DNA from: Christensenellales bacterium
Lineage (GTDB): Bacteria; Bacillota; Clostridia; Christensenellales; CALWSW01
Assembly: GCA_040768925.1 (NCBI GenBank)
Contig: JAXGLZ010000001.1
Coordinates: 607,016-671,015 of the forward strand
DNA: 64,000 bases
Direction of reading: 5' to 3'
The notes beneath the pieces were generated by a model, which saw nothing but the letters and a program-made list of their open reading frames with translations, was not told the origin of the DNA and ran no database searches. Both the position numbers and the translations under genes were made by a program. How positions within the stretch are numbered: position 1 is the first letter of the stretch; every line of letters starts with the position of its first letter. Positions 4,149 through 54,876 of this stretch are shown here, one piece after another.

Positions 4149-4163
4149 CGATTTTACCCCCTG

Positions 4164-17392: not shown

Positions 17393-18526
17393 ATGAACAT
17401 CAGTCAATTCATCGTATACCTGATGGTCGTATTCATGGCCATCGCAGCCCTGGACAGGATCTTCGGCAACAAGTTCGGGCTGGGCCAGCAGTTTGAAGAA
17501 GGCTTCAACGCCATGGGCCCCCTGGCCCTGGGCATGATCGGAATCAACTGCCTGGCGCCGCTGTTGGGGGATATTCTGACCCCGTCCATCGGCCCGTTCT
17601 TTAAGCTCTTTGGCGCTGATCCCGCCATGGCCGGCACCATCATTCTCTCGATCGACACCGGTGGCTACGCCCTCGCCCACAGCATGACCAGCAACGCGGA
17701 CATTGCCAACCTTTCGGCGATCATCCTGGGTTCCATGATGGGGCCTACGCTGGCCTTCGGCATCCCCGTTCCCCTGGGCATCATTCCCAAAGACGACACG
17801 AGGTTCCTCGCCCTGGGCACGTTGGCTGGCATTATCATGATTCCCTTCGCCTGCTTCCTCGGCGGAATACTGGCGGGGTTCGACGTGCTGATGGTGTTCA
17901 AGAACCTCATTCCCATCTTCATCGTCGCGATGCTCATCGCGCTGGGTCTGGCGCTCATACCCAAGGGGATGATTAAGGGCTTCTCGATCTTTGCGAAGAT
18001 CATGATCGCCATCATCACCTTCTCCCTGGCCCACGCGATCATCTCCGAGCTGACTGGACTCACCCTCATCCAGGGCATGGCGCCCCTTTCCGAGTCCTAC
18101 GTTATCATCGGCGCCATCGCGATCATGCTGGCGGGCGCTTATCCCCTGGTCGCGGTGATCACCCGGGTGTTCAAGAAGCCGCTGATGAAGGTCGGCAAGC
18201 TGATGGGCATCAACGACGTTTCCGTCGCCGGCCTGATCGCCACCACGGCCAACAGCATCCCGATGTACAATATGGTCAAGGATATGGACAACAAGGGCAA
18301 GGTCATCAACTTTGCGTTTGTCTGCTGCGCGGCCTTTGCGCTGGGCGACCATTTGGGCTTCTGCGCCGGCGTCGCGCCGCACATGGTCATGCCGATGGTC
18401 GTGTCCAAACTAGTGGGCGGCGTCGCGTCGATCTTCGTCGCGCTGTTTGTCTGGAAGCTCAAGGCAAAGACGATTGTGGACACGTCTGCCCCGATCGCCC
18501 CGACAGAGGCGGAAGTGCCCGCCTGA
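17393..18526 (+). CDS. eutH: Ethanolamine utilisation protein EutH (ethanolamine permease)
   Basis: The polytopic membrane protein begins MNISQFIVYLMVVFMAIAALDRIFGNKFGLGQQFEEGFNAMGPLALGMIGI, typical of the EutH family. AGGAGG RBS. Confidence 0.85.
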   Translation: MNISQFIVYLMVVFMAIAALDRIFGNKFGLGQQFEEGFNAMGPLALGMIGINCLAPLLGDILTPSIGPFFKLFGADPAMAGTIILSIDTGGYALAHSMTSNADIANLSAIILGSMMGPTLAFGIPVPLGIIPKDDTRFLALGTLAGIIMIPFACFLGGILAGFDVLMVFKNLIPIFIVAMLIALGLALIPKGMIKGFSIFAKIMIAIITFSLAHAIISELTGLTLIQGMAPLSESYVIIGAIAIMLAGAYPLVAVITRVFKKPLMKVGKLMGINDVSVAGLIATTANSIPMYNMVKDMDNKGKVINFAFVCCAAFALGDHLGFCAGVAPHMVMPMVVSKLVGGVASIFVALFVWKLKAKTIVDTSAPIAPTEAEVPA

Positions 18527-18638
18527 TCCCCGTTTGAACGTCTCCTGCCGTGCCGAAGCGATTCCGCCTCGGCACGGCTTCTCTGACTGCCCCTCGCCCG
18601 GCCGCAATGAGATCCGGGCGAACTGGAAGGAATCATCC

Positions 18639-19649
18639 ATGAACTGGAAAGCCAACAAAAAATCGATCGTCATCCTGCTTGTGGTATTCGTGCTTGCTTT
18701 TGCGGCCGCCGCTTTCGACAAGGGGAGTTTTTTCGGCCTGTTCAACAGAACGGGCAGGGAGCTGGCGCCAAAAGACAGCGAGGAAACCCTTTTTTACACC
18801 AAGCTCAACGCCTGCACCTCTGAAAACGTGATCGAGCGAAGCGGGTTTGCGTTTAAAAACCAAAACGGGAACATCTCCGCCGTGGAGCTGGCATCCGGCG
18901 TGCGGGTTGACATCATCTCCCCCGAAGGGGAAAACAGTGAATATACGAAATTCAGCGAATACGTCAGCTATATTTATCTTTACGATGGGGAAGACCTCTA
19001 CCGCTGCGGGATCAACGGCGATCACAAGGTCAAGCTTGCCGAAGGCGTGCTGGATTATGAGCTGATGGGGGATTATATCTATTTCCTTCAGGAGGACAAC
19101 GGCGAAAACCGCCTGTTTCGCAGCATTCTGACAGGGTCGAACAAGAAGGCGCTTTTTGATTTTCCCGTAGAGGCCTTCCTCGCCTATGACGGCTGGCTGC
19201 TGATGAAAAAAGGCGAGGAGGGATCTTCCCAAGTCTGGCGGGAGTACAATGTGCTAACCCAGAAGAGCTTTGACCACAGATTTGACAAAGGCGCCCATTC
19301 CTTCGCGCTGGACGGCGGAGCGATCTATTACCTGACTGATGAAGCGGGCGGCGGAAGCGCCCTGTGGCGCAGGGATTTTACCACGGCCGAAGATGTGAAA
19401 GTGGCGGAGGGAAACATCGTCAAATACCGCGTCGGTTCCTCTGGGATCGCCCTTTTGGTGGGCAGCGGGGAGGGCGCGGCCGTCAAATACATCGACAAGG
19501 CAACGATGCGGGGTAAAAAGCTGGAAAAGCGAAGCTTCTCCGCCGAGGACGGGCTGGACCTTTCCGCCGAAAACATCTATGTTTCGGACGCCGGGGGCAC
19601 AACCCATTATTCCTCCGTGGAAACGGAAGAATGGAAAACGCTTCCCTGA
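18639..19649 (+). CDS. Membrane-anchored DUF5050-like beta-propeller protein
   Basis: N-terminal TM segment (SIVILLVVFVLAFAAAAF). Repeated blades of the type GDYIYFLQ / GGAIYYLTD / AENIYVSDAGG. I trimmed the track ORF to the ATG at 18639 with a GGAAGG RBS. Confidence 0.5.
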   Translation: MNWKANKKSIVILLVVFVLAFAAAAFDKGSFFGLFNRTGRELAPKDSEETLFYTKLNACTSENVIERSGFAFKNQNGNISAVELASGVRVDIISPEGENSEYTKFSEYVSYIYLYDGEDLYRCGINGDHKVKLAEGVLDYELMGDYIYFLQEDNGENRLFRSILTGSNKKALFDFPVEAFLAYDGWLLMKKGEEGSSQVWREYNVLTQKSFDHRFDKGAHSFALDGGAIYYLTDEAGGGSALWRRDFTTAEDVKVAEGNIVKYRVGSSGIALLVGSGEGAAVKYIDKATMRGKKLEKRSFSAEDGLDLSAENIYVSDAGGTTHYSSVETEEWKTLP

Positions 19650-19656
19650 AAGCGGG

Positions 19657-19689
19657 AAAAACCGGAGCCAAGCAAGGCTCCGGTTTTTT
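19657..19689. terminator. Bidirectional rho-independent terminator between convergent genes
   Basis: AAAAACCGGAGCC-aagcaa-GGCTCCGGTTTTTT. Confidence 0.8.
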
Positions 19690-19751
19690 GATGCCTTGAA
19701 GCATGGGAAAATCCGCCGGGCAAAGACCGCAGAGCTTTTTTGCGGCCTGGA

Positions 19752-20549
19752 TTATTGCGCCCGTTTTCCGATCCCGTGCCCGGCCATCATAACTTTGATT
19801 CCGCGCTGGCGCAGGCGTTCGATAAAGGCCGGGTCGGTCGCGTAGTCGGTTATGAGGCAGTCGATTTCGCTCAGGCGCAGGAAGGGTGAAATGGCGGTCT
19901 TGTTCATCTTGGAATAATCGCAGAGCACGATCACCTGAGAGGAGCACTGGGCCATGCTGCGCTCGACGTTGCCCACAAGGATGTTCGCGCTGCAAACCCC
20001 CCGCTCAATATCCACGGCGTCCGTCCCCAAAAAGGCCTTGTCGACCCGTATGCCGTCAAAAAAAGAGCCTGCGCTCGGCCCGACGATGCACCCGGTTCTG
20101 CCCCGCACGATGCCGCTGCAGACCCGCACTTCGATATTTTTGTTGTTCATCAGGGTGTTTGCGGCCACGACGGAGTTGGTCAGAACGATCGAATCCCTGA
20201 GGTCTTTGAGAAGGTGGCAAAGTTCCGCTACGGTGGAACCGCTGGCCAGGGCGATCGTATCCCCGTTTTTGATCAGGGTTCGGGCGTATTCCGAAATCTC
20301 CTTTTTTTGTGTGATGTTCAGCACGGTTTTTCGCGCGATGGGTTCGTCCCGATTGGCGTCCAGGCTGGCCGCGCCGCCGTGGGTGCGGAGCAGCAGGCCC
20401 TTTTTCTCCATATCCGTCAGGTTTTTCCGGATGGTAGAAGGCGCCATATGGAAGATTGCACAAAGCTCCGCAATGGAAACCCGCTCCCGGGTCTCCAGAA
20501 GATGAATGATGTAATCCTCCTTTTCCTTCAGAAAAGAATCGTTCTCCAT
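19752..20549 (-). CDS. DeoR/GlpR-family transcriptional regulator
   Basis: HTH ERVSIAELCAIFHMAPSTIRKNLTDMEKKGLLLRTHGGA plus a DeoR C-terminal sugar-phosphate sensor domain. I trimmed the track ORF to the ATG at 20549. Confidence 0.85.
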   Translation of the reverse strand: MENDSFLKEKEDYIIHLLETRERVSIAELCAIFHMAPSTIRKNLTDMEKKGLLLRTHGGAASLDANRDEPIARKTVLNITQKKEISEYARTLIKNGDTIALASGSTVAELCHLLKDLRDSIVLTNSVVAANTLMNNKNIEVRVCSGIVRGRTGCIVGPSAGSFFDGIRVDKAFLGTDAVDIERGVCSANILVGNVERSMAQCSSQVIVLCDYSKMNKTAISPFLRLSEIDCLITDYATDPAFIERLRQRGIKVMMAGHGIGKRAQ

Positions 20550-21071
20550 ACAATCTCTCCAATCAGTGTTGGCGCTGCGCCGCGGCAGGCAGCAATTTTC
20601 TGGAATCGCATTCAGGTGCTTGACGTCTATAAAATATATTATACAGGATTTGATACGATTCACAATGGATTGTGAAAACCATATCTAAGTATGGGAGATC
20701 CCTGTTCAAAACTGTGGGTAAATTTGCAAAAAAGTTGATCAAAACGCCAAAAATTAGCCTTAGATTAGCGAAAAGGGATTAATATCGGACAATTAAATCG
20801 TTAATTATGAACGGATTATTTGACGCGTGCAAAAGCGGGATTATATAATTTGTATGCGAAACCATTCGCACGGGTGGGGATCCGCCTGAATCGAACCAGA
20901 AGGCCCTCCGGGCAGGCCGGAACATGAGGAGCACACGGGCCGGCCCCAAAGGATCCCAAGGAGAACTGTGACCGCCTCACAGGATTCGGACAGCCGCATT
21001 GTTTGGAACAGAAACCGTGTGGAAGACGAATTTTGGCTGGTGGCAAATGCCGCCATGCAAGGAGGACGCTC

Positions 21072-21752
21072 ATGAAAAAAAGACCCGAACTGGTAGTTAT
21101 GCTTACTTATAACGACGTGACCGTCAAAGACGCCTACGATGTTTTCGAATCCTGCAAGGACCTGCCGGTCCAGCATTGGGGGTTCAAGAACGTCGGGCTG
21201 CCCAAAGACGAGATGAAGCGCGTTGTTCAGGCGATGAAAGACGTCGGAAAAACCACCTATCTGGAAGTTGTCACCTATGACGAGGATTCCTGCCTCGACG
21301 CTGCTAAAACCGCCGTTGACTGCGGATTTGACTGCATCATGGGTACGGTCTATTTCGATTCCATACACGAATTCCTAAAGCAGAACAATATTAAGTACAG
21401 CCCGTTTGTCGGCAAGGTTTCCGGCAGCCCCAGCATCCTGGAAGGCACAAACGAGGAAATCATCCAAAACGCCAGGGATCTGATGGCAAAGGGTATCGAC
21501 GCCTTCGACATCCTCGCCTACAGGCACATCATAGACGGTCAGAAGCTCGCCTATGCGTTCTGCGCCGCGATCGATGCGAAGGTTTGCATCGCGGGAAGCA
21601 TTTCGAACTTTGCACGCGTAGACATCATGTTCGACATCGGGCCCTGGGGCTTCACGATGGGCAGCGCGCTGTTCGACGGCAAATTTGTTCCGGATGGCGG
21701 CTTCAGGGCAAACCTGAAGGCGGTTTCCGACTATATGATCAACCACGACTAA
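21072..21752 (+). CDS. Uncharacterised protein, probably an aldolase/epimerase-like TIM barrel
   Basis: Alternating beta/alpha pattern (LVVMLTYND..., TYLEVVTYD, FDCIMGTVY, AFDILAYRH, VCIAGSI). No catalytic motif that I can name. GGAGGA RBS. First gene of a kinase/HAD cluster. Confidence 0.35.
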   Translation: MKKRPELVVMLTYNDVTVKDAYDVFESCKDLPVQHWGFKNVGLPKDEMKRVVQAMKDVGKTTYLEVVTYDEDSCLDAAKTAVDCGFDCIMGTVYFDSIHEFLKQNNIKYSPFVGKVSGSPSILEGTNEEIIQNARDLMAKGIDAFDILAYRHIIDGQKLAYAFCAAIDAKVCIAGSISNFARVDIMFDIGPWGFTMGSALFDGKFVPDGGFRANLKAVSDYMINHD

Positions 21753-21778
21753 ACTGTCGGAAACGAGGGGAAGGACAA

Positions 21779-23308
21779 ATGAGCAAACAGTTGTTAGTTG
21801 GCATCGATATGGGCACCAGCGCCCTGAAGGTCGCGGTATTCGACACCGCCGGAAAGCTTCAGGCGAGCGCCACCCGGGAATACTCCCTGCTTACCCCCGC
21901 GAACAACATCGTTGAAACCCCTCCGCACATCTATATGGACGCGATCAAGGCCTGCTTCCGGGCAGTCGCGGAAAAAGGCGTGGACACCATGGCCATCGCC
22001 GCCATCGGCTTTTCCGCCCAGAGCGAAACGCTGTTCTTTGTGGACGCGGAAGGCAGGGCCCTTAGGAACGCCATCAGCTGGATGGACAATCGGGCGGTCA
22101 CCCAGGCCAAGCGCATGACCGAGAAATTCACCGACGAGTATTGCTACAAAAAGACCGGCCAGGTCGGCTTCGCCCCGAACTGGCCCGCGACGAAGGTGCT
22201 CTGGGTCAAGGAAAACGAGCCGGAAGTCTTCGCAAAAACCGCGAAGATCCTGCTGATCGAGGATTTCATCATCTTCCACCTGACCGGAAAGTACGTCGCC
22301 AGCGGCGCGATGCTGACCAGCACCGAATACTGGGACATTACGACGAAGCAGTATTGGGGCGAAATGCTCGATTACCTTGGGATCACGGAGGATATGCTGC
22401 CCCAAATCAGGGAATCCGGCGAGGCCGTGGGCACCATCCTGCCGGAAATGGCAAACGAACTGGGCGTGGGCGAAAGTGTGATGATCTGCACCGGCGCGAT
22501 GGACAACGCCATGGGCGCGGTGGGGGTTGGCGCCGTGGACCCCGGGGTGTTCTCCGAAAGCATTGGCTCGTGCCTGGCGGTCTGCGTTCCGACCAACGGC
22601 ATTCATTACGACCCCAACATGCTCATGCCCGTGCACTATTACCCCATCAAGGATACGTACATGATGCACACCTTCACCACCGGGGGCATGTGCCTGCGCT
22701 GGTTCAGGGATCATTTTTGCCAGATGGAGCGCGCCGTGGCCGAAATACAGGGCACGGACAGCTACGACATGCTGACGATGGAGGCCGCCACGGTTCCTCC
22801 TGGCTGTGACGGCCTCTCCTTCCTGCCGCATATGACCGGCGCCCTTGCGCCGGACCTGAACCCCAACGCGACCGGCGTGTTCTTCGGGCTGAACCTAAAC
22901 CACAAAAAGGCCCACTTTATCCGGGCGATCATGGAATCTTTGGGCTTCCTCGTCAAGCGCAATCTGGATGCACTTTCGGACATGGGGATCGAGGTGGAGG
23001 AGGTGCGCGCCTTCGGCGGCGGTTCCAAGAGCAGGGAATGGTGCCAGATCAAGGCGGATATTCTGCAGAAGCCCATCTGCACCACCAACGTGCAGGAAGA
23101 GGCCGCCTGCCTTGGCGCGGCGATCCTTGCGGGCTATGCGGTGGGGATTTTTGACGACGTCAAGGCAGCCTGTGACAGCATGATCAAAATCGTCGGCCGC
23201 TATGAACCCAATCCCGAACATGCCGCCATTTACCAAAAGGGGTATGAGAAATACAAAAAGCTTCAGGACGACCTGAAGGAAATGTTCGAGCTCAACGCCG
23301 GGAACTAA
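21779..23308 (+). CDS. FGGY-family carbohydrate kinase (xylulokinase-like)
   Basis: N-terminus LLVGIDMGTSALKVAVFD. C-terminal VRAFGGGSKSREWCQIKADIL. Typical two-domain FGGY length (509 aa). Confidence 0.85.
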   Translation: MSKQLLVGIDMGTSALKVAVFDTAGKLQASATREYSLLTPANNIVETPPHIYMDAIKACFRAVAEKGVDTMAIAAIGFSAQSETLFFVDAEGRALRNAISWMDNRAVTQAKRMTEKFTDEYCYKKTGQVGFAPNWPATKVLWVKENEPEVFAKTAKILLIEDFIIFHLTGKYVASGAMLTSTEYWDITTKQYWGEMLDYLGITEDMLPQIRESGEAVGTILPEMANELGVGESVMICTGAMDNAMGAVGVGAVDPGVFSESIGSCLAVCVPTNGIHYDPNMLMPVHYYPIKDTYMMHTFTTGGMCLRWFRDHFCQMERAVAEIQGTDSYDMLTMEAATVPPGCDGLSFLPHMTGALAPDLNPNATGVFFGLNLNHKKAHFIRAIMESLGFLVKRNLDALSDMGIEVEEVRAFGGGSKSREWCQIKADILQKPICTTNVQEEAACLGAAILAGYAVGIFDDVKAACDSMIKIVGRYEPNPEHAAIYQKGYEKYKKLQDDLKEMFELNAGN

Positions 23309-23316
23309 ACGGCAAA

Positions 23317-23357
23317 GCGCCTGCGCGCCAAAACAAAACGGCGCGCAGGCGTGTTTT
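23317..23357 (+). terminator. Rho-independent terminator after the FGGY kinase
   Basis: GCGCCTGCGCGCC-aaaacaaaac-GGCGCGCAGGCG followed by TGTTTT. Confidence 0.7.
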
Positions 23358-23510
23358 CACAGGCGGCGGATCCTCCGACGGCAGGTCAACGGCGCAAAAA
23401 ACAATAGCGGCCCGGTCGCGGGCTCCTCTTTTTACGTTTTGGGGTTTCCCTGCGCCGAGGGATATACTATGATTAATATGGAAGAAAGATTTCAAAAAAG
23501 GAGACGCGAG

Positions 23511-24341
23511 ATGAAAACCCTGTATGTCTCGGATCTGGACGGCACTTTGCTGAACGCCAAAAAGAACATCACGCCTTATACCGCCCGGGTGCTGAACGCC
23601 TGCATCGAAAAGGGCATGCTTTTTACGGTGGCGACGGCGCGCATGGCCTATGCCTGCGATTACCGGCTGGAGGGGATCAGGCTGAGCACTCCCGGGATCC
23701 TGACCAACGGGGTGTTCCTTTATGATTTTGGCAAGCGGGAATACGTTTCGGTGGAGGAAATGGACCCCCCGCTCGTGCCGGCGGTGACCGACGCCTTTCG
23801 AAAAAACGGCTGCCCGTGCTTTTTGTATACCCTGAAGGACGGTAGGATCAGCATCTATTACAATGATGTGCGCCTGCGGGAGCAGACCCAGTATTACAGT
23901 GAAAAAGCCCTGAAAAGCTGCGAAGAGGTGGCGCTGGTTTCGGATCCTATGGAAAAAATAAAAGACGCCCGGGTGGTTTACTCCGCGCTGACGGGAACAG
24001 CGGAACAACTCGCGCCCGTTCGGCGGGATCTTGAAAAAATCCCCGGCGTTTCCTGCGCGTATTACCTGAATATTTACAATGGGATGTACTGCATCGAGGC
24101 GTTCAGCGGCTCCGCCAGCAAGAAAAGCGCCCTGAAAAAGCTTCAAAAGCTGGTGGGGTGCGACGAGCTTGTGGTTTTTGGGGATAATCTGAACGATCTT
24201 TCGATGATCGAAATCGCAGACAGGAGCTATGCCCCGGCAAACGCTCTGCCCGAGGTCAAAGAGCGGGTGACCGCCGTGCTGGAGGACTGCGACAGCGACG
24301 GCGTCGCCAAATTCCTGGCCGCGGAATGGGGGATCGGCTGA
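23511..24341 (+). CDS. Cof-type HAD-IIB family phosphatase
   Basis: Motif I VSDLDGTLL and motif IV VVFGDNLNDLSM. AGGAG RBS. I trimmed the track ORF to the ATG at 23511. Confidence 0.85.
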   Translation: MKTLYVSDLDGTLLNAKKNITPYTARVLNACIEKGMLFTVATARMAYACDYRLEGIRLSTPGILTNGVFLYDFGKREYVSVEEMDPPLVPAVTDAFRKNGCPCFLYTLKDGRISIYYNDVRLREQTQYYSEKALKSCEEVALVSDPMEKIKDARVVYSALTGTAEQLAPVRRDLEKIPGVSCAYYLNIYNGMYCIEAFSGSASKKSALKKLQKLVGCDELVVFGDNLNDLSMIEIADRSYAPANALPEVKERVTAVLEDCDSDGVAKFLAAEWGIG

Positions 24342-24876: not shown

Positions 24877-24959
24877 GTTCAAACGAAGGCCCTTGCTCCC
24901 CGAAAAACAGGGTGAACCGCCGGGCGCTTCGCGCCGCAAAAGCAGATGATCAAGCAGTC

Positions 24960-25005
24960 AAAAGCCGCGCCTTTTTGAAATCCGGAGCAAAGGCGCGGCT
25001 TTTTG
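24960..25005. terminator. Bidirectional-looking terminator hairpin
   Basis: AAAAGCCGCGCCTTT-(14 nt)-AAAGGCGCGGCTTTTT. Confidence 0.65.
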
Positions 25006-25222
25006 GTTTGCGTGCGGCAGGACTCCGCCATTTAGAAAAAGCCCGCCCGGCCGTCACAAACGACGCGCATAAAAGGATTGCCTTTTTTGCATCCGTATGC
25101 GTTAATGATTGCACCGAAAGAAAATGGGGCCAAAAGGCAGTGGCCCGGGGCAAAACAATGCTCTATAATGGTGCTAGCCTGCGCTTCGCCGCATGCAAGA
25201 AACGCGAACCGAGGTCAAATGA

Positions 25223-25957
25223 ATGGAAAACCCGCTGAAGACTGCAATTTGCGAAGACCGGCCGGAAGACGCCGCGCTGCTGGTGGACTATATTTCCCGA
25301 AGCGGTATCGCCGCGGCGTGCGAGGTCTTTCCGTCCGGAGAGGAGCTGCTGAACGGCTTCTTTGCGGGGCGGTACGATCTGATCTTTCTGGATATTTACA
25401 TGCAGGGCATGCGGGGGATCGACGCCGCGGAAAAAATCCGGGAAAAGGACGAAAGCGTCGTCCTCGCGTTTACCACCACGAGCAGGGACCACGCCCTGGA
25501 AAGCTATCGCCTGGGGGCGCTCAAATACCTAGAAAAGCCGGTGAAGGCGGCCGAAGTCAAGCAGGCCCTTTCTCTTGCGCGGGCGAACCGCTCGTCCGCG
25601 GCCTATATTTCCGTCATGGCCGGGGGAAAAAAGACGGACATTCCCATCAACAGCATCCTCTACTGCGAGCAGCAGAACCACGCCGTGACCCTCAACACCG
25701 AAGGCGGGCCGCTGCGCGCCAGCCAGTCCGTCAAGCTGTCCGCCATCGAGCCGCTGCTGCCCAGCCCGCCGTTTTTGCGCTGCCACCAGAGCTATGTGGT
25801 GAATTTGCGCTACGTCGAAAAACTGGACCGGGAAATGCGCACCTTTACCATGAAAAACGGGGGAACGGTGTACATCCGGCGGCAGGACATCAAAAAAACC
25901 GCAGAAGCCTACGAGGATTACCTCTTTTGCACGGCAAGGAACGCGCGGGATGATTAG
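25223..25957 (+). CDS. LytTR-family (LytR/AlgR) response regulator
   Basis: Receiver domain (ICEDRPEDAALL...LIFLDIYMQGMRGID) plus a LytTR DNA-binding domain (ILYCEQQNHAVTLNT...FLRCHQSYVVNLRYV). The stop is TAG and overlaps the kinase start. Confidence 0.88.
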   Translation: MENPLKTAICEDRPEDAALLVDYISRSGIAAACEVFPSGEELLNGFFAGRYDLIFLDIYMQGMRGIDAAEKIREKDESVVLAFTTTSRDHALESYRLGALKYLEKPVKAAEVKQALSLARANRSSAAYISVMAGGKKTDIPINSILYCEQQNHAVTLNTEGGPLRASQSVKLSAIEPLLPSPPFLRCHQSYVVNLRYVEKLDREMRTFTMKNGGTVYIRRQDIKKTAEAYEDYLFCTARNARDD

Positions 25958-27836
25958 CCGGATCGCCCGGGGCGCGGCGGCGCTGGGCTGCGCGTTTTTA
26001 GCCGCCGCGCTGGTTTACCTGATTTTGACGCCGATGCAGTACAAATTAAGCGCGCTGGCCGCGCCCCGGCCCGCACGCGGCATCGCCGACGTGTTTTACG
26101 AAACCGGGACCGGCGAAGGGGGCGCGCTACGCCTCCCCGCAAAGCTGAACGGGCTTGCGCCGCGCACCGCGGTCACATAGTTTGCCGAAGTCGCGGCGGA
26201 ACCGGGCGAAAGCCTGCTCATCAAATCGGTGTTCGCGCCGATGCGGGTGTTTTTGGACGATGCGCTCGTTTATTCCTGCGGGCAGGAAGGGAGCTATCCC
26301 GCCTATATGAACGACCCGCCCACCATCCTTTCGGAAATTCCGCTGCCGCAGGAAGGCGGCGTTTTTCGCCTGCGGGTGGAATACCGCTCCCCCACCCAGC
26401 GGAGCGAGCTTTCCGTTCCCGTGATCCTGGCGGGCAGCAAGGACGCCCTGCTGACCAGGCAGTTCCAAAACGAGGGGTTCCCCTTTCTTTTTTCCCTTTT
26501 TCTGATCTTTCTGGGCGTCATGATGGCCCTGATTTCCTTCGGCCTGATCTGGCGCGCCCAGGCGGGGACGGTCTTTTTGTGGCTGGGGCTTTTTTCCCTG
26601 GCTTCGGGCGTCTGGGGGCTGGGGGAATGCGATTTTTCCGCGCTTTTGATGCCCTGGCCCTCGCTGCTTTACGCGATGTCCTATTTGGGCCTGTTCACCG
26701 TCATCATTCCCTTTCTGCGCTTCGGGCTGATCGTGCTCAACCCGAAAAACAGGCTGCCCATGCAGGTCATGCTCTGGGTGAACGGCTTGTCCGTGGGCGC
26801 CGCCGTGCTGCTTCAGCTCACCGGGCTGGTGGATTTCACAAGGAGCCTGTTTTGGTTCCACATCGTCGCGCCTTTTGGCTTTTTCGTGTTTGCCGTCTGC
26901 TTGGTCTATGAGGGCGTCCGAAGGAAAAACGCCGCGGCAAAGCGGTTTGCCCCGTCCATCCTCATGCTGGTCGCCTCCGTCCTCTTGGAGCTGCTGAATT
27001 ACCGGCTGCGCCTGGTGGGGCAGTTCACGCTGTTTTTCCAGCTGGGGGTGCTGGCTTTTGTGCTGTCCCTCGGGGTGGCCAGCGGGTATTATGTTCGGAG
27101 TTCCCTGCAAACCGCGGCCGAGCGGGACCGCCTGGAATTCGAAATGGCCGCCATGGGCCGCCAGCTGACGCTGCAAAGGCTGCAATACCGCAAGCTGGCG
27201 GAAAACGACGCCGCCGTCAAGGCCCAGCGCCACGATCTGCGGCACCAGCTGGCGGTGCTGCGCAAGCTGAACGAAAGCGGGGAGCGGGACAAGCTGGGCG
27301 GCTATATCGACACGCTGATCGGCAAAATCCCCGGCGAACAGGGGGCCGTCCTGTGCGAGAATTACGCGGTGAACGCCGTTGCCGCCCATTATTGCGCGAT
27401 GGCCGAAAAAACCGGCGCGGAGGTTTCCGTCCGCCTGGTTGTGCCCAAAGAGATCGGCCGCGTTTTGGAAAGCGACCTGTGCGTCATCGCGGGCAACCTT
27501 CTGGAAAACGCCGTGGAAGCCTGCCGCCGGATGGAGGGGGGCAGGCGGTTCATCCGCATGGAAAGCCGCCTGCAATACGGCACGCTGACGATCGTGATGG
27601 ACAACAGCGATCCCGGCGGCACAGAGCGGCAAAACGGCGTATTCCTTTCCAGCAAGCGGGAGGGGGCGGGCGCCGGCCTTTCTTCCGTGGCGGCCGTCGC
27701 CCGGCGGTACGGCGGCGCGGCCAGGTTCGAATCAAAGGACGGGGTCTTTCTTTCTTCGGTGTATATCCGGCTGGACGAAGGGGACGAAGCGCGGAGCGAA
27801 ACGGGCGAGGAGCAGCATGCCGGCCCAAACAGATGA
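25950..27836 (+). pseudogene. 7TM-receptor sensor histidine kinase (AgrC/LytS-like GHKL core), interrupted by an in-frame TAG at 26178-26180
   Basis: Track ORFs 25950..26180 and 26229..27836 are in the same frame. The N-terminal TM helix and periplasmic domain continue straight across the TAG. Seven TM helices follow, then the H-box QRHDLRHQLAVL and the GHKL ATPase (NLLENAVEA...GAGLSSV). A GTG restart is possible at 26229. Confidence 0.7.
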
Positions 27837-28042
27837 AAGGGAACGCGTCCCCAAACCCGGCGGTCAGGCTGTTCAGATTGCGCCCCGGTGAAGGCCGCGC
27901 ATGGATTCCGTTCCTGCGGGGCGCGTCATTCCCGGTCAAGGAATTCATCGAAGGCGGCTTCTTCGCGAAAAACGGGATCGAATCCCTTGTCTGATCCTTC
28001 ATCGCGCGGGCAAACGTTCTTCCCGACGCAAAAACGCAAACA

Positions 28043-28076
28043 AACGCCCCTGGTTGCAGAGCATCAGGGGCGTTTT
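28043..28076. terminator. Terminator between the convergent kinase and gldA genes
   Basis: AACGCCCCTG-(12 nt)-CAGGGGCGTTTT. Confidence 0.7.
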
Positions 28077-28111
28077 GCATTTGGCGGGCCGGGCGAACAG
28101 AAACGCCGCCG

Positions 28112-29221
28112 TCAAGGGGCGGCTGCGCGCCGCGCCATGTAACCGCGGCCGAGCGCGTCGGCGGCGATGATCGCGTCCACGAGCATTTGGGGCGTTACGG
28201 CGAAGGGCATGCGGCGCATGGATACCAGATTGCAGGCGGTTTCGGCAACTTTCATGATTTCCTCCCGGCTGATCCGCGCGATGCCCAACCCGGCCAGGGT
28301 GACCGGCAGCCCGACGTCCAGGCAGAAGTTCATCACCTCGTCCAGCTCGGCCCCGGGGGCGTTTTCCAGCACGAGCTGGGCCAGCGTGCCGAAGGCGACC
28401 TTTTCGCCGTGATAAAACCCGTGGGTTTCGGGTATCTGCGTGAAGCCGTTGTGGATGGCGTGGGCCGCGGCCGTGCCGCAGTTTTCGGCGCCCACGCCGG
28501 AAAGATAGGTGTTGGCTTCCACGATATGCTCCACCGCCTTGGTGCAGACTTTGGCGTTCACGGCGGCCAGCGCCTGAACGCCTTCCGCGATCAGCGTGTC
28601 ATAGCAGGTTTTTGCCAGCGCCGTCGCGGCGAGGGTGCACTTCCCGCCGAAGGTATGGGCGCTGTCCGACCGCCGGCAGGCGCGGGCTTCGAAATAGGTC
28701 GCCAGCGCGTCCCCCATGCCGGCGACCAGCAGGCGCGCCGGGGCCTTGCTGATGACTTCGGTGTCGACCAATACCATGTTGGGGTTGTGGGGAAAGTAAA
28801 TATGGGATTCGAACACGCCTTCGTCGCTATAGACGAGGGACCCTGAAGTGCAGGGCGCGTCTGTGCTGGCGGCGGTGGGAACGACGGCCACGGGCGCGTT
28901 TGCGTAAAACGCCGCGGCCTTCGCGGTGTCCTGCGCTTTGCCGCCGCCGATGCCCACGACCACGTCGCAGCCGGAGTCCCGATACGCCGCCAGCACGCGG
29001 TCGATCTCGCTGCGCGAGCATTCCCCGCGGAAGATTTCGTAGACCGGCGCCGTTCCAAATTCCCGCGCGCTTTCCGCGATTTTGCCTTCCACCCGGGCCT
29101 TGCCGGAAGCGCTGACCAGAATAAACGGGGCTGTTCCCATGCTTTGAAGGTGTTTGCACAGCTCGCCGAGCACGCCGTAGCCCTGAATATAGCGTTCCGG
29201 GCAGCCAATGATAGTCGCCAT
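28112..29221 (-). CDS. gldA: Glycerol dehydrogenase (iron-containing alcohol dehydrogenase family)
   Basis: ERYIQGYGVLGELCKH..., GIGGGKAQDTAKA, and metal-ligand His residues in AAAHAIHNGFT...HGEKVAFG. AGGAGG RBS. Confidence 0.88.
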   Translation of the reverse strand: MATIIGCPERYIQGYGVLGELCKHLQSMGTAPFILVSASGKARVEGKIAESAREFGTAPVYEIFRGECSRSEIDRVLAAYRDSGCDVVVGIGGGKAQDTAKAAAFYANAPVAVVPTAASTDAPCTSGSLVYSDEGVFESHIYFPHNPNMVLVDTEVISKAPARLLVAGMGDALATYFEARACRRSDSAHTFGGKCTLAATALAKTCYDTLIAEGVQALAAVNAKVCTKAVEHIVEANTYLSGVGAENCGTAAAHAIHNGFTQIPETHGFYHGEKVAFGTLAQLVLENAPGAELDEVMNFCLDVGLPVTLAGLGIARISREEIMKVAETACNLVSMRRMPFAVTPQMLVDAIIAADALGRGYMARRAAAP

Positions 29222-29585
29222 GGTCTTTCCTCCTGATGCGCATCGTTTTCGGAGCGGCCGATCCTGATGGCTGCGGTTTTTTTGCCGCGCGCCGCCGGGG
29301 AAAGCACGTCCCCCTTTTCTATTGTACCGGACACGCGGAAAAATTTCACGCGTTTCTCATGAAAAGCGCCGTATGAACCGCGATAAAAGCGCGCAGGCTC
29401 CCGTTTTGGCGCCCAAAACCGCGCTTGCGCGGGGCCGGTGCGTGCGCGGATGTTTTTCGCGCGGGGAAACCGGAGCAAACGATTTTGCTTTGACGCGCCG
29501 GTTCAAAAGACGCCGCTTTGGCCAAACGCAAATCATACGCCCCGCAAGGCGGGTTCGGATCATACCGTTTTGGCTGAGGCGGGCA

Positions 29586-29620
29586 AGAAAATACCGCGAA
29601 CCACGGTTGGCGGTTCGCGG
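29586..29620 (-). terminator. Rho-independent terminator after the surface-protein gene
   Basis: Minus strand: CCGCGAACC-gccaaccgt-GGTTCGCGG followed by TATTTTC. Confidence 0.6.
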
Positions 29621-29659
29621 CAGCTTGCCCGGCGTCACGCCGGCATGATCGTTCGGTTT

Positions 29660-32518
29660 TTATACCACGATGCGGCATTCGCGGATCTTGGTGTTGCCCT
29701 TGGTGTTGACGTAAACCCGATAGGCGCCGACCGTATAGGTATCCGCGGCGTTGTTTTGGATCGTAAAAGTATCCGTGTATACCTTTGCCGTGCCGTCGGA
29801 ATACAGCTCGGTTACAGCAATGGTCAGTTCGTTTGTGCTGCCGGGAATTTTGTTGACCGAAGCGGATGCCTGCGCGCCCGTTTTCACGGCGGCGGGGATC
29901 GGCGGTTCGGCCCAGATGACGACGGCGGGGTCCTCGCCCACATTCTGGGTGGTCTCAAAGACCTTTTTCTGGTAGGTCGCCTCAAAGGGATAGCCGGTGG
30001 GCAGCATTTCCATCGTGCTGCCGGTTTTGCCGCTGCCAAAGGTTTTCCAGCCGCCGGCATAGAACTTTGCCGCGGCCTCAAGGGGCGTTCCGTGGCCGTC
30101 CAGCAGGTTGAAGGATACCAAAACGGTTTCAAATCGCACTGCTCCGTCTGCGGCAACGTCCTGGGTTTTTTGCACCCGCGCGCCGAGGTAGTTCACCTCA
30201 AAGGGGTAGGAACCGGGCAGCAGTTCCGCCGGGGTTCCGGTTTTGCCGAGGCTCCTCCAGCCGCCCGCATAGTATGCGGCGTTGGCGGTGAGCGGTTCAT
30301 TCGTCGAGCTTGTGAGCGTTACCGTCACGGGAACGGTTTGGAACACGACGACGGGGTCAAGGGAGATATCCTGGGATTTTTGGATCGAGGCGCCCTTGTA
30401 ACCGACGCCGAAGGAATAGGTGCCGGGCATCAGCTCCAGCGCGGCGGGGGTTCTGCCGGGAATGGTTTTCCAGCCGCCGGCGTAATACTGGGCCGCGCCA
30501 TCAAGCGGCTCGCCCGTGGAGCTCAGCAGCTGCACCACTACGCCCACGCTGTTGAAGGTGATGAAGGAACTCTCGGAAAGATCCTGGGTCTGTTTTGCGG
30601 TCGTACCGCCCAAGGTCATGCTGAAGGACAGGGATTTCGCCTTGTTGCCTGCAAGCATGCCGAAGCAGGTGCCGTCCGCCCCCGTCATGCCAAGGTCGCG
30701 CCACGCGCCGTCGTAATATTGGGCTTTGCCGCCTTCAACCGGCTGGCCGCCGCTGCCCAAAAGCCTGGCGTAGGCGATGGTGTATTCCAGGGATTGCCCG
30801 GCAACAGGGGTGATGGGCTGGGTCTTTTTGGGGAAGCCGCCGCCTTCGAAATAAAACTTGATTTCAACGGGCAAAAGCTCCACGGGTTCGGTATAGGTGA
30901 ACCATTTTGTGGTGTAGAAGGTGAGTTTTCCGCTTGCGAAGCGGATCGTGACGCGGCCGGTTTGGAACAGCACCTCGGAAGCGTCCGCCACGTTGATTTT
31001 GCGCTGCTGGCGCGCGCCGTTGTGGATGACTTCGAAGGTGTGTTCCACGGGCAGAAGCTCCATGGCGGCGTTGGTTTCGCCCTCGCCGTTATCGCCGAAG
31101 GGCTGCCATTTGCCGGCGTAGAAGTTGGCCGTGCCGCTTAAGGGCGCGCCTGCGGAATCGAGCAGCTTGAAGGTGAAGGCCCTTGTGGTGAAGGTGACTT
31201 CCGTTGCGCCGGACACCGTGACCTTTTGGTTCTGGAGGGCGCCCTTGTAATTCATCTGGAAGGTATACGCCTGTTCGAGCATTTCCATAGAGGTGTTTGC
31301 CGCGCCTTCGCCGTTATCGCCGAAGCGCAGCCAGCCGCCCGTGGCCGTGCCGTAGTGGCTGACGGCGCCCGAAAGGGCATTGCCCGTGGAGCTGATGAGC
31401 TTCACGCTGACGGGCACGGTTGTAAAGCTGAAAACCGGATTTTCGGACATGCGCTGATTGAGCTGCACCCGGCCGCCTTTATAGTCGAGGGCCACGGCGG
31501 TGGCGCTTTTGCCCCCGGGCAGCGCCAGCACAGCCGTGCCGGTTTCGTCGGTGACGGCGGCGCTGCTCACCCATCCGCCGGCGTAATAGGAAACAACGCC
31601 CCCCGCAAGGCCTTTGCCTGTGCTGCTCTTCAGCGTTACGAGGGCGAAATTGAGGCTGATCGGGTCTTGACCGATTGTGAGGATGCGGGTGAACTGCGGC
31701 TTCACCGAGCCGCCGAAGAAGAATTTGTATTCGCCCGGGAACATTTCGCCCGGCTGCTTGCCGTCTGAAAGCCTGTAGTAGCTATGGTCGCTCCCGAGGT
31801 AATCGATGACTCCGGAGTGATTGAACTGCACCCGCGTTGTTTTAAAGACGTGGTCGATGCCATCCCGCGTGATCTCCACGGGGATATAGCCCGAGCGCGT
31901 TCCCTTGTAACCGGCCTGTATGCCGTAGGTTCCGGCAAACAGCTCCCGGGCGGCGATGCCGTTTTCGTCGGTTTTGCCGAAGGTGGGGTAGGAGGAAGAC
32001 GCGTGGTAGGAAAGGCTGACGTTTGCAAGGGGTTCGCCAAAAGAGTTTTGCACTTTGACGCGCGCCTCAGTGGTGGCGAAGTCCACCTGAAGGCCTTCCG
32101 CGCCAAGCACAATTCCCGTTTGGACCGCCTTTGTATGCTGGTAACCGGCGGTCACGTTGTATGTGCCGGGTGTTAGGCTGAGCGCCAGCGTGCCGCCGCT
32201 GTCGCTCGTTCCCACGGATATCACGCTGCCGCCATACTAGCCGCCGCTCATGGAAAAGCTGACTCCCGCGAGCGGGTTGCCCTTGCTGTCTTTGACGGTA
32301 ATCGTCATCGGCGCGGTATCGGCGGTTGATGCAAGGGCGGAGGGGTCAGCCGGCTGTTCCCCCGCGTCCGGCAGTGCGATGTCCCCAGCCGGCGCGGGCT
32401 CGCTTTGCTCTGGTTCGGGCGCCGCCGTGTTCTCCTCCGCCAGCGCGTAAGAAGGCAGCAAGAGGAGCATGACGCACAGTGTGAGTACGAGTGAATACAG
32501 CCATGATCGTTTTTTCAT
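29660..32518 (-). pseudogene. Large secreted repeat protein (~10 CarboxypepD_reg/Ig-like repeats carrying a YYAGGW motif), interrupted by an in-frame TAG at 32237-32239
   Basis: Signal peptide MKKRSWLYSLVLTLCVMLLLLPSYALA with a GGGAGGA RBS at 32518. Track ORFs 32237..32683 and 29660..32224 are in the same frame (...SFSMSGG*YGGSVISVG...). There is no LPxTG or other C-terminal anchor. Confidence 0.7.
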
Positions 32519-33177
32519 GAATACGTCCTCCCGATTGATCATTTGGTTATTCCTATGAGTTCCTGCCGAATGGTTGGCCGCATGCAGCATGCCGCGCGCC
32601 AACCATGCTCCAATAAAAAAACCCGGGCCAAAAAGGCCAAGGCCGGTTGCACAATAAGCTCCGCATTTCCCATAAGTGCCCAACGAAGGGAAATATCTCG
32701 TTGCTTCCTTGTAATATATATAAGTTTATATCCTTTTAAGAAAAAGTCAACCGAAACGCCAGCATTCGGCAAATAAACCGTTCGACAAAAAAACGCAAAA
32801 AGATTTATATGGGCAAATGCGGCAATACCGCGGTTGGCGGCCGAAGGGAATGAGCATGCGGGAAAACGCGCTTGCGCAAGTTGTTTCAGGGTCCAGAAGT
32901 CTAATTTAAGGATTTCTCCACGCGCGCAATCAAGGGTTTTTGATTTGGTTCAGGGCTGCCCTGGTTTTGCCAAACGCTCAAAAACCGTTGGGGCCGGCCT
33001 TTCCGATAATCCGTAAGGCAGGCATGCAGGGCGGTCCGATTTCCCTCGTTCCCGGCGGGATTTCCCTTAGGGCCGGGGCAGTCCGTTTCATTTGCCGCCG
33101 GCGGCGCGGCCTGCCCTTCGAATCCCCTGAGCGCAGGCCAAAACAAAAGACCCCCGCCGCGCGGAGGCTTTCTGTTT

Positions 33178-33254
33178 TGGCGTTCCCGGCGGGATTCGAA
33201 CCCACGGCCTTCCGCTTAGGAGGCGGACGCTCTATCCTGCTGAGCTACGGAAAC
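33178..33254 (-). tRNA. tRNA-Arg (anticodon CCU), CCA encoded
   Basis: Minus strand: GTTTCCGTAGCTCAGCAGGATAGAGCGTCCGCCTCCTAAGCGGAAGGCCGTGGGTTCGAATCCCGCCGGGAACGCCA. It has a 7-bp acceptor stem, a D-loop AGCTCAGCAGGATAGAGC, the anticodon loop CT-CCT-AA, and a T-arm GTGGGTTCGAATCCCGC. Confidence 0.93.
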
Positions 33255-39329: not shown

Positions 39330-39955
39330 GAGTTGGTTTGGATTGGGGGCGATGCGCCCGGAGGGTCGTTTGATCCCCTTGCATGAACCCTCATAAGGGC
39401 TGTGCGCCGGCAGTCGGATGGGGACACCCCGAATCGTTCCTATCCTCACTCTGGCGTGTTTCCAGACGGACTGGGGTCCCGGAGCGCAACGGCTTGCCTG
39501 CTGGACAGGAGGCCCGAAAGGCTCCTTAGAGTTCCATTATTAAGAAGTTCGCCGCATCCTAAAAGGACACCCATTTCCCGAATAAAACCCCTTTGATTCC
39601 TCTGCACAAAAGCCCCATAAGGGCTGTTCGCAGGCAGACGGATGGGGACACCCCGAAAATACTCTTTGCCTGCTCCGGTGTGTTTCCGGACGGTCTGGGG
39701 TCCCGGAGCCGGGCGGCAGGGGGCCCGAAAGGCTCCTTAGAGTCCCATTATTAAGAAGTTCGCCGCATCCTAAAAGAAAACCCATTTCCCGAAATAAAAT
39801 CCCTTTGATCCTCCCGCACAAAACCCCCATAAGGGCCGTTCGCAGGCAACCGGATGGAGACACCCCGAAAACACCCTTTGCCTGCTCCGGTGTGTTTCCA
39901 GACGGTCTGGGGTCCCGGAGCGCCAATGGCTTGCCGGGAAAACGGGGGTCCGGGG
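39330..39955 (-). repeat. Left arm of the nest: three minus-orientation core copies (anchor CATAAGGGC at 39391, 39616, 39829; spacings 225 and 213 bp)
   Basis: Direct reading. The copy nearest rfbB (39340-39540) is the most diverged. The other two are roughly 95% identical to plus-strand units. Confidence 0.8.
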
Positions 39956-40141
39956 GTGTCCCTCGGCGTTTTTTGCTTCTTTTTTTCGCAAAAAAAGAAG
40001 GTTCGCATTCCCGCAGGAATGACGCTTCCTTTCAGGAAGGAAATTCTTTTTTTTGCCCCAAAATGCCGCTTCCGGGGGGAGATCACCTACTTTTTTGGCA
40101 AAAAAAGAAGGTGCACATTTCCGCAGGAATGACGCTTCCTT

Positions 40142-41095
40142 TTAGGAAGGAAATTCTTTTTTTTGCCCCAAAATGGCATTTTCGGAGGAAAGAGAACCTA
40201 CTTTTTTTGTACGAAAAAAGTAGCAAAAAAGTGCCGGGGAGCCCCCCGGACCCCCTGCCCGGCAAGCCATTGGCGCTTCAGGAACCCAGACCGTCTGGAA
40301 ACACACCGGAGCAGGCAAAGGGTGTTTTCGGGGTGTCCCCATCCGGCTGCCTGCGCACAGCCCTTATGAGGGTTTTGTGCAGAGGGATCAACGGGGTTTT
40401 ATTTCGGGAAATGGGTGTCCTTTTTGAAGACGTGACGAGCTTTTGCAAATGACTGGGCGGAAGGAAATTTTCTTTTTTTGCCTCAAAATGGCACTTCGGA
40501 GGAAAGAGAATCTACTTTTTTTGCACAAAAAAAGTAGCAAAAAAGTGCCGGGGAGCCCCCCGGGCCCCCTGCCCGGCAAGCCATTGGCGCTTCGGGACCC
40601 CAGACCGTCCGGAAACACACCGGAGCAGGCAAAGGGTGTTTTCGGGGTGTCCCCCTCCGGCTGCCTGCGAACGGCCCTTATGAGGGTTTTGTGCGGGAGG
40701 ATCAAAGGGATTTTATTTCGGGAAATGGGTTTTCTTTTTTAAAGACGTGACGAGCTTTTGCAAATGACTGGGCGGAAGGAGATTCTCTTTTTTTGCCTCA
40801 AAATGGCACTTCGGAGGAAAGAGAACCTACTTTTTTGCACGAAAAAAGTAGCAAAAAAGTGCCGGGGAGCCCCCCGGACCCCCTGCCCGGCAAGCCATTG
40901 GCGCTTCGGGAACCCAGACCGTCTGGAAACACACCGGAGCAGGCAAAGGGTGTTTTCGGGGTGTCCCCCTCCGGCTGCCTGCGAACGGCCCTTATGGGGC
41001 CTTTGTGCAGAGGGATCAACGGGGTTTTGTTTTGGGAAATGGGCGTTCTTTTTTGAAGGCGACGAACTTTTGCAAATTGCCCGGCGGTGGGGCTT
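40142..41095 (+). repeat. Right arm of the nest: three head-to-tail units (starts about 40142, 40458, 40773; period 316/315 bp)
   Basis: Each unit contains a CTAC-T6/7-loop-A6/7-GTAG hairpin, a CGGGGAGCCCCCCG hairpin and the 160-bp core. Confidence 0.85.
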
Positions 41096-48499: not shown

Positions 48500-49261
48500 T
48501 CAGCCAAACCGGAACGCCAGAGCGGTGTCGTCAAAGCGCTCGGGCGTGCCGTTCCTGTTCAGTATGATCAGCGCGCCGTCGTCGTCCACCCCCATCACCC
48601 GGGCGGTGCGCTCTTCGCCAGCAACGATATAGGTAATTTCCTTCTCGAGCGCGGTAGACCGGTCGCGGTAAAATTCCATGTACGCCCTGTTGCCGGGGTC
48701 GTTCACAAGGCCAAGCAGTTCCCGGGCGATTTCCCCCGCGAGCCTTCCGGGGGAAAGGTACGGCGCCTCCAGGGAGCCGAACGCGCAAAAAGGCTCGTTT
48801 TGCGGTTCGCCGCCGCAGATGTTGACCGTGATGCCCACGATGATCCCGCAATGCCCCTGCGCAACGGCGGTATTGACCAGGATGGCCGCGATCTGCTTTC
48901 CCCCAATACAGATTTCTCCCGGCCAATTGATCACCGGCCGTTGGGGTGTAAGCCTTTCAATCGCCATAACGCAGGCAGCCGCGGCCATTGACGTTATGGA
49001 GAGGGGACTCACGCGCTCGCCCCCGGGCCCAAGAAGCAGGGAAAAATGCGCCGAAATCCCCTCATGGGAAGAAAAAGAATCCCCCGCCGCCCGATCGCCG
49101 GTCTGCTCCAGGGCGGAGAAGATCACAGGGCCCGTTTCGCCCGCCGAAAGCGCCCGCAGGGCTTGCGCGTCCGTCGAATCGGCAGCGGAGAAGGCCCGCA
49201 CCGGAATTCCGGGGCAGGCGGCTTCGATATCGCTCTGCAGTTTTTGTTCGGCATTCACCAT
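48500..49261 (-). CDS. Biotin-protein-ligase-fold (BPL_LplA_LipB) protein with degenerate catalytic motifs
   Basis: Group-I BirA-like length (253 aa). Where GRGRxGRxW is expected it reads QTGDRAAGDSFSS. Where KWPND is expected it reads INWPGE. GKQIAAILVNT is retained. Confidence 0.55.
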   Translation of the reverse strand: MVNAEQKLQSDIEAACPGIPVRAFSAADSTDAQALRALSAGETGPVIFSALEQTGDRAAGDSFSSHEGISAHFSLLLGPGGERVSPLSITSMAAAACVMAIERLTPQRPVINWPGEICIGGKQIAAILVNTAVAQGHCGIIVGITVNICGGEPQNEPFCAFGSLEAPYLSPGRLAGEIARELLGLVNDPGNRAYMEFYRDRSTALEKEITYIVAGEERTARVMGVDDDGALIILNRNGTPERFDDTALAFRFG

Positions 49262-50034
49262 CTTTTCTTTTTTCCAAAGGCGGTTTTCAGGTGATCGTCC
49301 AGCTTGCCGGAATCGACAAAGGGCAAAAGCGGCATGATGGCCGCAATGCCTTTTTCGCGCATGATCTCCATCGCGATGCGGCTGACGGCCTCCCCGCGCA
49401 GGAAGGGTGCGATGGCGGCGAGGTCCGAGGCGTCTCGGCCTTCTTCAATCAGGCCCTCGGCGATCTTCCCGAGGACATCTCTGTCCAAAAAAGGCGCGAT
49501 TGCCGCGAGGTCCGAGGCGTCTCCGCCTTCCTCGATCAGGCCCACGGCGATCTTCCCGAGAACGTCTTCGCCCAGAAAAGGCGCGATGGCGGCAAGCTCG
49601 CCAATGCCGCACCCTGAACCGATCAGGGAAAGGGCGATTTCCTCCAGCGCTTCCTGGCTGACGAAGGGCGCCAGCGCCGCAAGCTCGCCGATGGAAAGCC
49701 GGGCGTTTTTTGCGGCTTTGTCCGCCTGATCCGGGCGGAGCAGGGGTGCCACTTCTTTGATCTCGTCTCCGGTCAGTTTCGGGGCTTCTTCGCTTTTTTC
49801 CAGCTTTTCCAGCAGGTTCGCCGTCTGCCTGTCGCCCAGGATTTCGTCCACGGTTACCCCCAGGGCTTCAGAGAGTTCGGGCAGCCTTGAAATATCCGGC
49901 ATCGTCTGGCCGCGCTCCCAGTTGGAGACTGCCTGGAAGCTGACCCCCATACGGTCCGCAAGTTCCATTTGAGTAAGGTTCGCAGCCTTTCTCATGCGCG
50001 AGATATTCCCGCCAATTTTCTTCATGTCGAACAT
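49255..50034 (-). CDS. XRE-family HTH protein with C-terminal 29-aa tandem repeats
   Basis: HTH LTQMELADRMGVSFQAVSNWERGQTMP. The C-terminal half has about 4 repeats of the type LAAIAPFL(G/D)xDVLGKIAxGLIEEGxDASD. It overlaps the BirA-like start by 7 nt. Confidence 0.8.
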   Translation of the reverse strand: MFDMKKIGGNISRMRKAANLTQMELADRMGVSFQAVSNWERGQTMPDISRLPELSEALGVTVDEILGDRQTANLLEKLEKSEEAPKLTGDEIKEVAPLLRPDQADKAAKNARLSIGELAALAPFVSQEALEEIALSLIGSGCGIGELAAIAPFLGEDVLGKIAVGLIEEGGDASDLAAIAPFLDRDVLGKIAEGLIEEGRDASDLAAIAPFLRGEAVSRIAMEIMREKGIAAIMPLLPFVDSGKLDDHLKTAFGKKKRW

Positions 50035-50527: not shown

Positions 50528-50549
50528 ACTGTGACCAAACTGTGACCAT
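50528..50549 (+). promoter_or_regulatory. Tandem 11-bp direct repeat ACTGTGACCAA/ACTGTGACCAT upstream of the fibre operon
   Basis: Read directly. It is followed by the palindrome ATGGCT-taatag-AGCCAT (50553-50570). The same CTGTGACCAT word recurs inverted at 56788-56797. Confidence 0.4.
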
Positions 50550-50619
50550 TCAATGGCTTAATAGAGCCATCAATAAGGATACACTGCGCGATAAAGCCAC
50601 GAACCGGGAGGATACACCA

Positions 50620-54864: not shown

Positions 54865-54876
54865 GGTTTTGACTGA

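Follow-up and report, generated by a model that had tools for sequence, protein, structure and literature searches.

A premature amber codon in an adhesin-like gene of uncultured Clostridia is probably a strain-specific nonsense mutation behind a putative c-di-GMP riboswitch

Introduction

Premature stop codons are known in the inlA gene of Listeria monocytogenes food isolates, and the decoding of UAG through pyrrolysine or an amber suppressor is another setting in which a UAG codon is met inside a reading frame. In Clostridioides difficile, class II c-di-GMP riboswitches are ON switches located before adhesin and pilus genes, and the adhesins CD2831 and CD3246 as well as pilA1 are under the control of such riboswitches (PMC6366702, PMC6447587). 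The locus described here touches each of these systems, as it comprises a secreted, adhesin-like repeat-protein gene with a class II c-di-GMP aptamer in its leader and an in-frame TAG close to its start. It lies in a window of 64 kb, which is the whole stretch of DNA analysed, from a lineage of uncultured Clostridia of gut or digester type. The TAG is very probably a recent, lineage-specific nonsense mutation (Q94*) and thus an ordinary strain-specific inactivation of a secreted repeat-protein gene.

The interrupted gene and its product

On the minus strand, a single frame of 952 codons plus a terminal stop runs from the ATG at 32518 to the TAA at 29660, and the TAG at 32237-32239 is its sole interruption. 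The parts of the gene are as follows.

Positions 32240 to 32518, minus strand: 5' part of the gene, 93 codons, with a Sec-type signal peptide, a linker and the start of domain 1.
Positions 32237 to 32239, minus strand: premature amber codon, Gln94 to stop (CAG to TAG), the variable base being 32239.
Positions 29660 to 32236, minus strand: 3' remainder of the gene, 858 codons plus TAA, delimited by translation and repeat alignment.

The minus-strand sequence at the site, ...ATG AGC GGC GGC TAG TAT GGC GGC AGC GTG..., in which the TAG occupies 32239-32237, and the translation of the frame agree with the preliminary description of this DNA, according to which an in-frame TAG splits the signal-peptide part from the remainder. 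The translated 5' part begins with the Sec-type signal peptide MKKRSWLYSLVLTLCVMLLLLPSYALA, followed by a linker rich in Pro and Glu and by the first ~24 residues of Ig-like domain 1. The 3' remainder contains the rest of domain 1, two further N-terminal beta-sandwich domains, eight Trp-containing repeats of the YYAGGW type, and a C-terminal region, and no signal peptide was found 3' of the TAG in its 858 codons. The 93-aa fragment has weak Big_1/BIg21 matches that stop at the TAG and cover Big_1 positions 10-43. The TAG interrupts an Ig-like/prealbumin-like domain across which homologues align without a break, so that translation, domain matches, and homologue alignment all place it within a conserved domain of an otherwise continuous frame. 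In annotation, the two open reading frames should be flagged as one disrupted gene, Q94*.

AlphaFold2 predicts an all-beta structure for the 858-aa part, with a mean pLDDT of 85.4 and low confidence only in the last ~80 residues. A Foldseek search against the PDB returned chains of Ig-like/prealbumin-like domains from bacterial adhesins, pilins, S-layer proteins, and MG domains, including the grappling-hook protein GhpA, the TIE protein of B. anthracis, the pilins SpaC and BcpA, SdrD, and macroglobulin MG domains, with global TM-scores that are low, as expected for beads-on-a-string chains. No Pfam or NCBIfam family scored above threshold for the YYAGGW repeats, and the C-terminus of the translation shows no LPXTG sortase motif. 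The model and its structural matches suggest a secreted, adhesin-like protein composed of beta-sandwich domains in tandem. With the intact allele, a 952-aa protein made of an uncharacterised YYAGGW beta-sandwich repeat is defined behind a c-di-GMP-II riboswitch, which is of modest added value.

Recurrence of the stop codon in separate read sets

The 854-aa ORF product (P0001) is recorded in an NCBI genome and in Logan assemblies. An 8169-bp Logan contig of run SRR27558880 (L001) is 100% identical to window positions 24956-33124, and a 3707-bp contig of run SRR27558881 (L012) is 100% identical to positions 29531-33237; both have 0 mismatches and both contain the TAG. Logan assemblies are k-mer-based, and the test of the TAG rests on assemblies of these two separate runs instead of read pileups. 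Its presence in two identical assemblies rules out an assembler artefact and makes a base-calling error very unlikely; as the evidence consists of assembled contigs, a mixed population at the site is possible. The runs SRR27558879 to SRR27558881 have consecutive accession numbers and possibly belong to one sample or project; the recurrence speaks for a reproducible call and not for a widespread allele. Among JGI metagenome contigs, an exact pattern spanning the site and having N at the variable base had 0 matches, and the contigs bearing the neighbouring SpoIIE gene, considered as a source of further strains, all stop short of the TAG. A full-text literature search with the run and assembly accessions found no paper.

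The ancestral codon

An intact protein of 952 aa (P0032) belongs to the 90%-identity cluster of P0001; it reads ...VSFSMSGGQYGGSVISVG... and has Gln at the site. It is encoded in the NCBI metagenome-assembled genome (MAG) GCA_964425015.1 (L010) and in a Logan contig of SRR8925725 (L011), both with CAG as the site codon, and at 99.3-99.5% DNA identity to the window these two loci are conspecific with it. The next-closest homologue, P0010 from a JGI metagenome (L009), shares 58% identity overall and 71% in the site region; this outgroup reads ...FSMWGGQFGGS... and likewise has CAG. Because CAG is present in both the conspecifics and the outgroup, the TAG was derived from CAG by a C-to-T transition. 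Window position 32239 is A on the plus strand where L010 has G, which corresponds to C-to-T at the first codon position of the coding strand, and the relatives in L010, L011, and L009 thus hold a sense codon one base away from a derived stop. In more distant homologues, the stop column contains P, K or a gap, and Trp in none of them. The source species was not among the GTDB species representatives scanned for orthologues, where the top match, from Ca. Pullichristensenella, has 44% identity.

The preliminary description had placed the stop on the invariant Trp of the YYAGGW repeats and had proposed TGG as the ancestral codon, changed by G-to-A at 32238. Neither proposal agrees with the homologues, which have Q, P, K or a gap at the site, nor with the CAG of L010, L011, and L009, from which the TAG differs at 32239. 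Moreover, domain 1 is not a repeat of this kind: the three N-terminal beta-sandwich domains lack the Trp, the eight YYAGGW-type repeats come after them, and domain 2, like domain 1 of the N-terminal type, has no Trp at the corresponding position. Domain 1 has two GG pairs (SGG*YGGS), the second of which (GGS) is paired by MAFFT with the GGW of the repeats, and in this internal repeat alignment the stop falls inside a 4-residue insertion and not on the Trp column. The positional match of the stop to the Trp is one of two possible alignments, and the one that the orthologues contradict. The Trp reading was rejected on the orthologue codons and on the MAFFT alignment; the comparison with orthologues, which had been suggested as a check, returned a non-Trp residue, namely Gln.

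Apart from the stop, the window and the intact allele differ by 7 synonymous and 5 missense changes, which gives a dN/dS of ~0.23 on about 702 synonymous and 2154 non-synonymous sites, and the 858 codons that follow the TAG show neither another stop nor a frameshift in this comparison. So few differences and the lack of a further lesion fit a recent event. Judged from these counts, the gene was under purifying selection before the stop arose, and the knock-out is recent.

The leader of the gene

Three elements precede the coding sequence.

Positions 32723 to 32750, minus strand: sigma-70-like promoter, TTGACT and TAAACT with a 16-nt spacer.
Positions 32632 to 32717, minus strand: c-di-GMP-II riboswitch aptamer (RF01786) within the 5' leader, scoring 54.4 bits where the gathering score is 53.5.
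Positions 32614 to 32644, minus strand: terminator-like hairpin with a U7 run, fold energy -13.7 kcal/mol, a putative expression platform.

The hairpin and its U7 run overlap the 3' strand of the aptamer. The match to RF01786 exceeds the gathering score in the window and also in L010 and L011, where it reaches 59.3 bits. This score, 5 bits higher than in the window, is due to a G/A SNP at 32696, by which a G-C pair of an aptamer stem becomes A.C in the TAG lineage. That lineage has TAAACT as its -10 box, and L010 and L011 have TAAAAT, which is nearer to consensus. SNP clusters as dense as these are seen in other intergenic regions when the window is compared with L010; the differences in the 5' region are not exceptional and are given little weight. 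By analogy with the riboswitch-controlled genes of C. difficile, the product may be a c-di-GMP-induced adhesin-like protein.

Two further genes with internal TAG codons

Two additional internal TAGs had been reported in the window.

Positions 26178 to 26180, plus strand: second premature TAG, Leu77 to stop (TTG to TAG at 26179), in the kinase gene 25950-27836.
Positions 14990 to 15827, plus strand: decayed lipoprotein gene with two FMN_bind domains and frame changes near 15110, 15320, and 15450-15490.

The first of them stands, as it is in frame within the kinase gene, whereas the TAG at 15439 lies in a fragment with at least three frame changes. The kinase gene comes after a LytTR response regulator gene on the plus strand. 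Its product, a sensor histidine kinase, combines a membrane anchor at the N-terminus with an extracellular domain, several transmembrane segments, and a GHKL domain. In the conspecific L010 the site codon is TTG (Leu), from which the TAG arose by a T-to-A transversion at 26179. This conspecific MAG has an intact copy of the gene, although the copy contains a run of N and a duplicated stretch of 153 nt resembling a scaffolding artefact. As with the repeat-protein gene, the annotation should give one disrupted gene, L77*.

In the decayed lipoprotein gene, the signal peptide is in frame 2, the two halves of FMN_bind domain 1 are in frames 0 and 1, and domain 2 is in frame 0, while the homologues are single polypeptides with at least two FMN_bind domains. 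The TAG at 15439-15441 sits in the linker between the domains, where homologues have Q (4/5) or A, and a TGA is also present at 15477. The shift near 15320 lies outside homopolymers, and the region is identical in a Logan contig (L013) of SRR27558879, a third run. The suggestion that all three TAGs are one step from TGG finds no counterpart in their ancestry, as none traces to TGG: the codon at 32237 goes back to CAG and that at 26178 to TTG, and at 15439 the homologues mostly have Gln.

A segment of 9.4 kb around this pseudogene, window positions 14650-24097, is missing from L010, where the HAD hydrolase is reduced to a fragment of 81 aa. The segment holds the FMN_bind pseudogene, genes for DUF1667, a Pyr_redox_2 oxidoreductase, EutH, DUF5050, a DeoR regulator, and an FGGY kinase, and part of the HAD hydrolase gene. 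Its absence from L010 reflects either a real deletion or a misjoin in the MAG.

Other features of the window

The G+C content of the window is ~60%, and its chromosomal genes, among them those for SecA, MreB, SpoIIE, and transketolase, are those of a spore-forming Firmicute. The named relatives of the transketolase, at 62-68% identity, come from Clostridiaceae and Oscillospiraceae MAGs and from Ca. Onthenecus. Between the epimerase and transketolase genes lies an apparently non-coding stretch of 1.6 kb (39506-41077) with long-period tandem repeats of 212 bp (x2), 110 bp (x2.1), and 314 bp (x3) at 88-91% identity; its open reading frames have no Pfam match, and an Rfam search of 39.4-41.2 kb gave nothing credible. 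A plus-strand cluster at 50542-57709 encodes a 1440-aa VWA-domain protein, a SipW-like S26 signal peptidase, and camelysin/TasA-like (Peptidase_M73) proteins, which suggests a TasA-type fibre or pilus-like surface structure. At 49255-50181 on the minus strand, an HTH_3 (Xre-type) protein ends in 29-residue repeats (DLAAIAPFL..GKIA.GLIEEG), which appear at the DNA level as an 87-bp tandem repeat at 49409-49627.

TAG as a terminator in the window

The earlier argument that four TAG-ended genes speak against global reassignment holds: these genes have family-fitting lengths, and their extensions are non-coding or contain a new gene start. The TAGs at 25955, 47319, and 58196 close the genes of the LytTR regulator, a GntR/UTRA regulator, and a thymidylate-kinase-like protein, each with a length in keeping with its family, and the sequence after each has a non-coding appearance; the LytTR response regulator has 244 aa in both lineages. 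After the TAG at 4164, a Met and a new signal peptide follow five codons on and belong to the next gene, which shares the frame by chance. The two genes in question, at 3093-5966 on the minus strand, are adjacent, encode secreted proteins with molybdopterin-oxidoreductase domains, and are in the same frame with TAG and five codons between them. The product of the first also has FMN_bind and MtrC-like domains, and the second has its own Met and signal peptide. This pair is a true gene boundary and not a candidate for read-through.

TAG thus ends at least four genes, and just two otherwise intact genes have it in frame, which does not fit global reassignment. No in-frame TGA or TAA lesion was found in other genes, as a composition-based scan across the window flagged antisense frames or true boundaries only. 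The tally of premature stops comprises two clean cases and one in a pseudogene, all TAG, a pattern that suppression would equally produce. In a chance model based on the codon usage of 41 genes (16,318 codons), nonsense mutations are expected to give about 50% TAG, 30% TAA, and 18% TGA, and over a range of transition and GC-to-AT biases the expected share of TAG among single-base nonsense mutations is 49-54%, with CAG to TAG as the likeliest single path (~15%). An all-TAG outcome among two to three premature stops then has a probability of about 0.25 to 0.125. With an expected share of ~0.5, two or three TAGs are unremarkable and provide no evidence for recoding.

Explanations of the stop codon

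A sequencing or consensus error, in which the true codon would be CAG, is extremely improbable. Systematic errors can be single-base substitutions, and the codon of the intact allele is only one base away from TAG, but the TAG is reproduced without mismatch over both Logan contigs, and the frameshifted FMN_bind region, whose shift near 15320 is outside any homopolymer, is matched exactly in the third run. Amber suppression or programmed read-through, by means of a suppressor tRNA, pyrrolysine or a leaky context, would leave the adhesin-like gene and the kinase still partly expressed; it accounts for the TAG identity of both clean premature stops and of the pseudogene stop, and it agrees with the 858 codons that follow the stop without a further lesion. 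Against it, the TAG is not conserved, the replaced residues differ between the sites (Gln versus Leu), TAG terminates four other genes whose extensions look non-coding or carry a signal peptide of their own, and chance would in any case yield TAG about half of the time. In addition, the stop is followed by U, a base that promotes efficient termination in E. coli. The interrupted genes match Ig-like and GHKL kinase domains only and no methylamine methyltransferase, and a search of the 64-kb window for a tRNA with a CUA anticodon, pylT or pylSBCD found none, the sole tRNA being Arg-CCT. Suppression has no positive support and is very improbable. A lineage with a CUA-anticodon suppressor tRNA outside the window, or with tolerance of UAG read-through, in which TAG-interrupted accessory genes remain partly expressed, is hardly to be expected, even though it would explain, if true, why each premature stop seen is TAG. 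Among the options listed in the preliminary description, recent nonsense mutations are the one that the evidence supports. What that description foresaw for ordinary decay, namely a non-Trp residue in orthologues and other lesions nearby, corresponds to the observations.

In this recent nonsense mutation, the C-to-T change on the coding strand turned the CAG of Gln94 into TAG and would inactivate the gene of a large secreted tandem beta-sandwich protein, since translation would stop after 93 residues and re-initiation downstream, for example at the GTG at 32224, would give a product devoid of a signal peptide. The strain would then effectively be a natural null mutant, and together with the independent kinase TAG and the FMN-binding lipoprotein pseudogene this points to ordinary loss of accessory genes. 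As a variant of this explanation, the loss may have been selected instead of arising by neutral decay, in that inactivating a c-di-GMP-controlled surface protein and a nearby two-component sensor was advantageous, for instance through escape from phage or host immunity or through a shift from an adherent lifestyle. Two independent nonsense mutations within 6 kb in one lineage would suit such selection, as would the weaker -10 box and the weakened aptamer stem pair in the same lineage and the purifying selection before the stop. On the other hand, intergenic SNP clusters of similar density occur elsewhere, the direction of the 5'-region changes is not polarised by an outgroup, the comparison covers two lineages only, and any functional link between the kinase and the surface protein is hypothetical. 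Selected loss is accordingly rather unlikely, though worth bearing in mind. As it stands, the nonsense mutation is a routine finding: one lineage has a natural knock-out of the gene for a secreted accessory protein. Null and intact strains together offer a natural comparison for probing the role of the 952-aa protein.

Comparison with described systems

In the pyrrolysine and amber-suppressor systems, as here, an in-frame UAG stands in an otherwise open frame. In contrast to those systems, the UAG of this gene is not conserved, orthologues having CAG and distant homologues P, K or a gap; the gene is not MtmB, MtbB or MttB but has Ig-like and prealbumin-like domain matches only; UAG is a normal terminator nearby, and a CUA tRNA was not found within the window. 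The genes under class II riboswitch control in C. difficile resemble the present one in that a c-di-GMP-II aptamer, followed by a terminator-like hairpin, is located in the leader of a secreted adhesin-like beta-sandwich gene. The present gene differs from them in that no LPXTG motif is visible, its repeats have no Pfam family, and its control by c-di-GMP is putative. The inlA alleles of L. monocytogenes share with this locus a strain-specific single-base nonsense mutation in a secreted or surface multi-domain protein that is intact in other strains; unlike in inlA, the stop falls here at codon 94 of 952, so that almost no protein would be made, and the host is an uncultured member of the class Clostridia.
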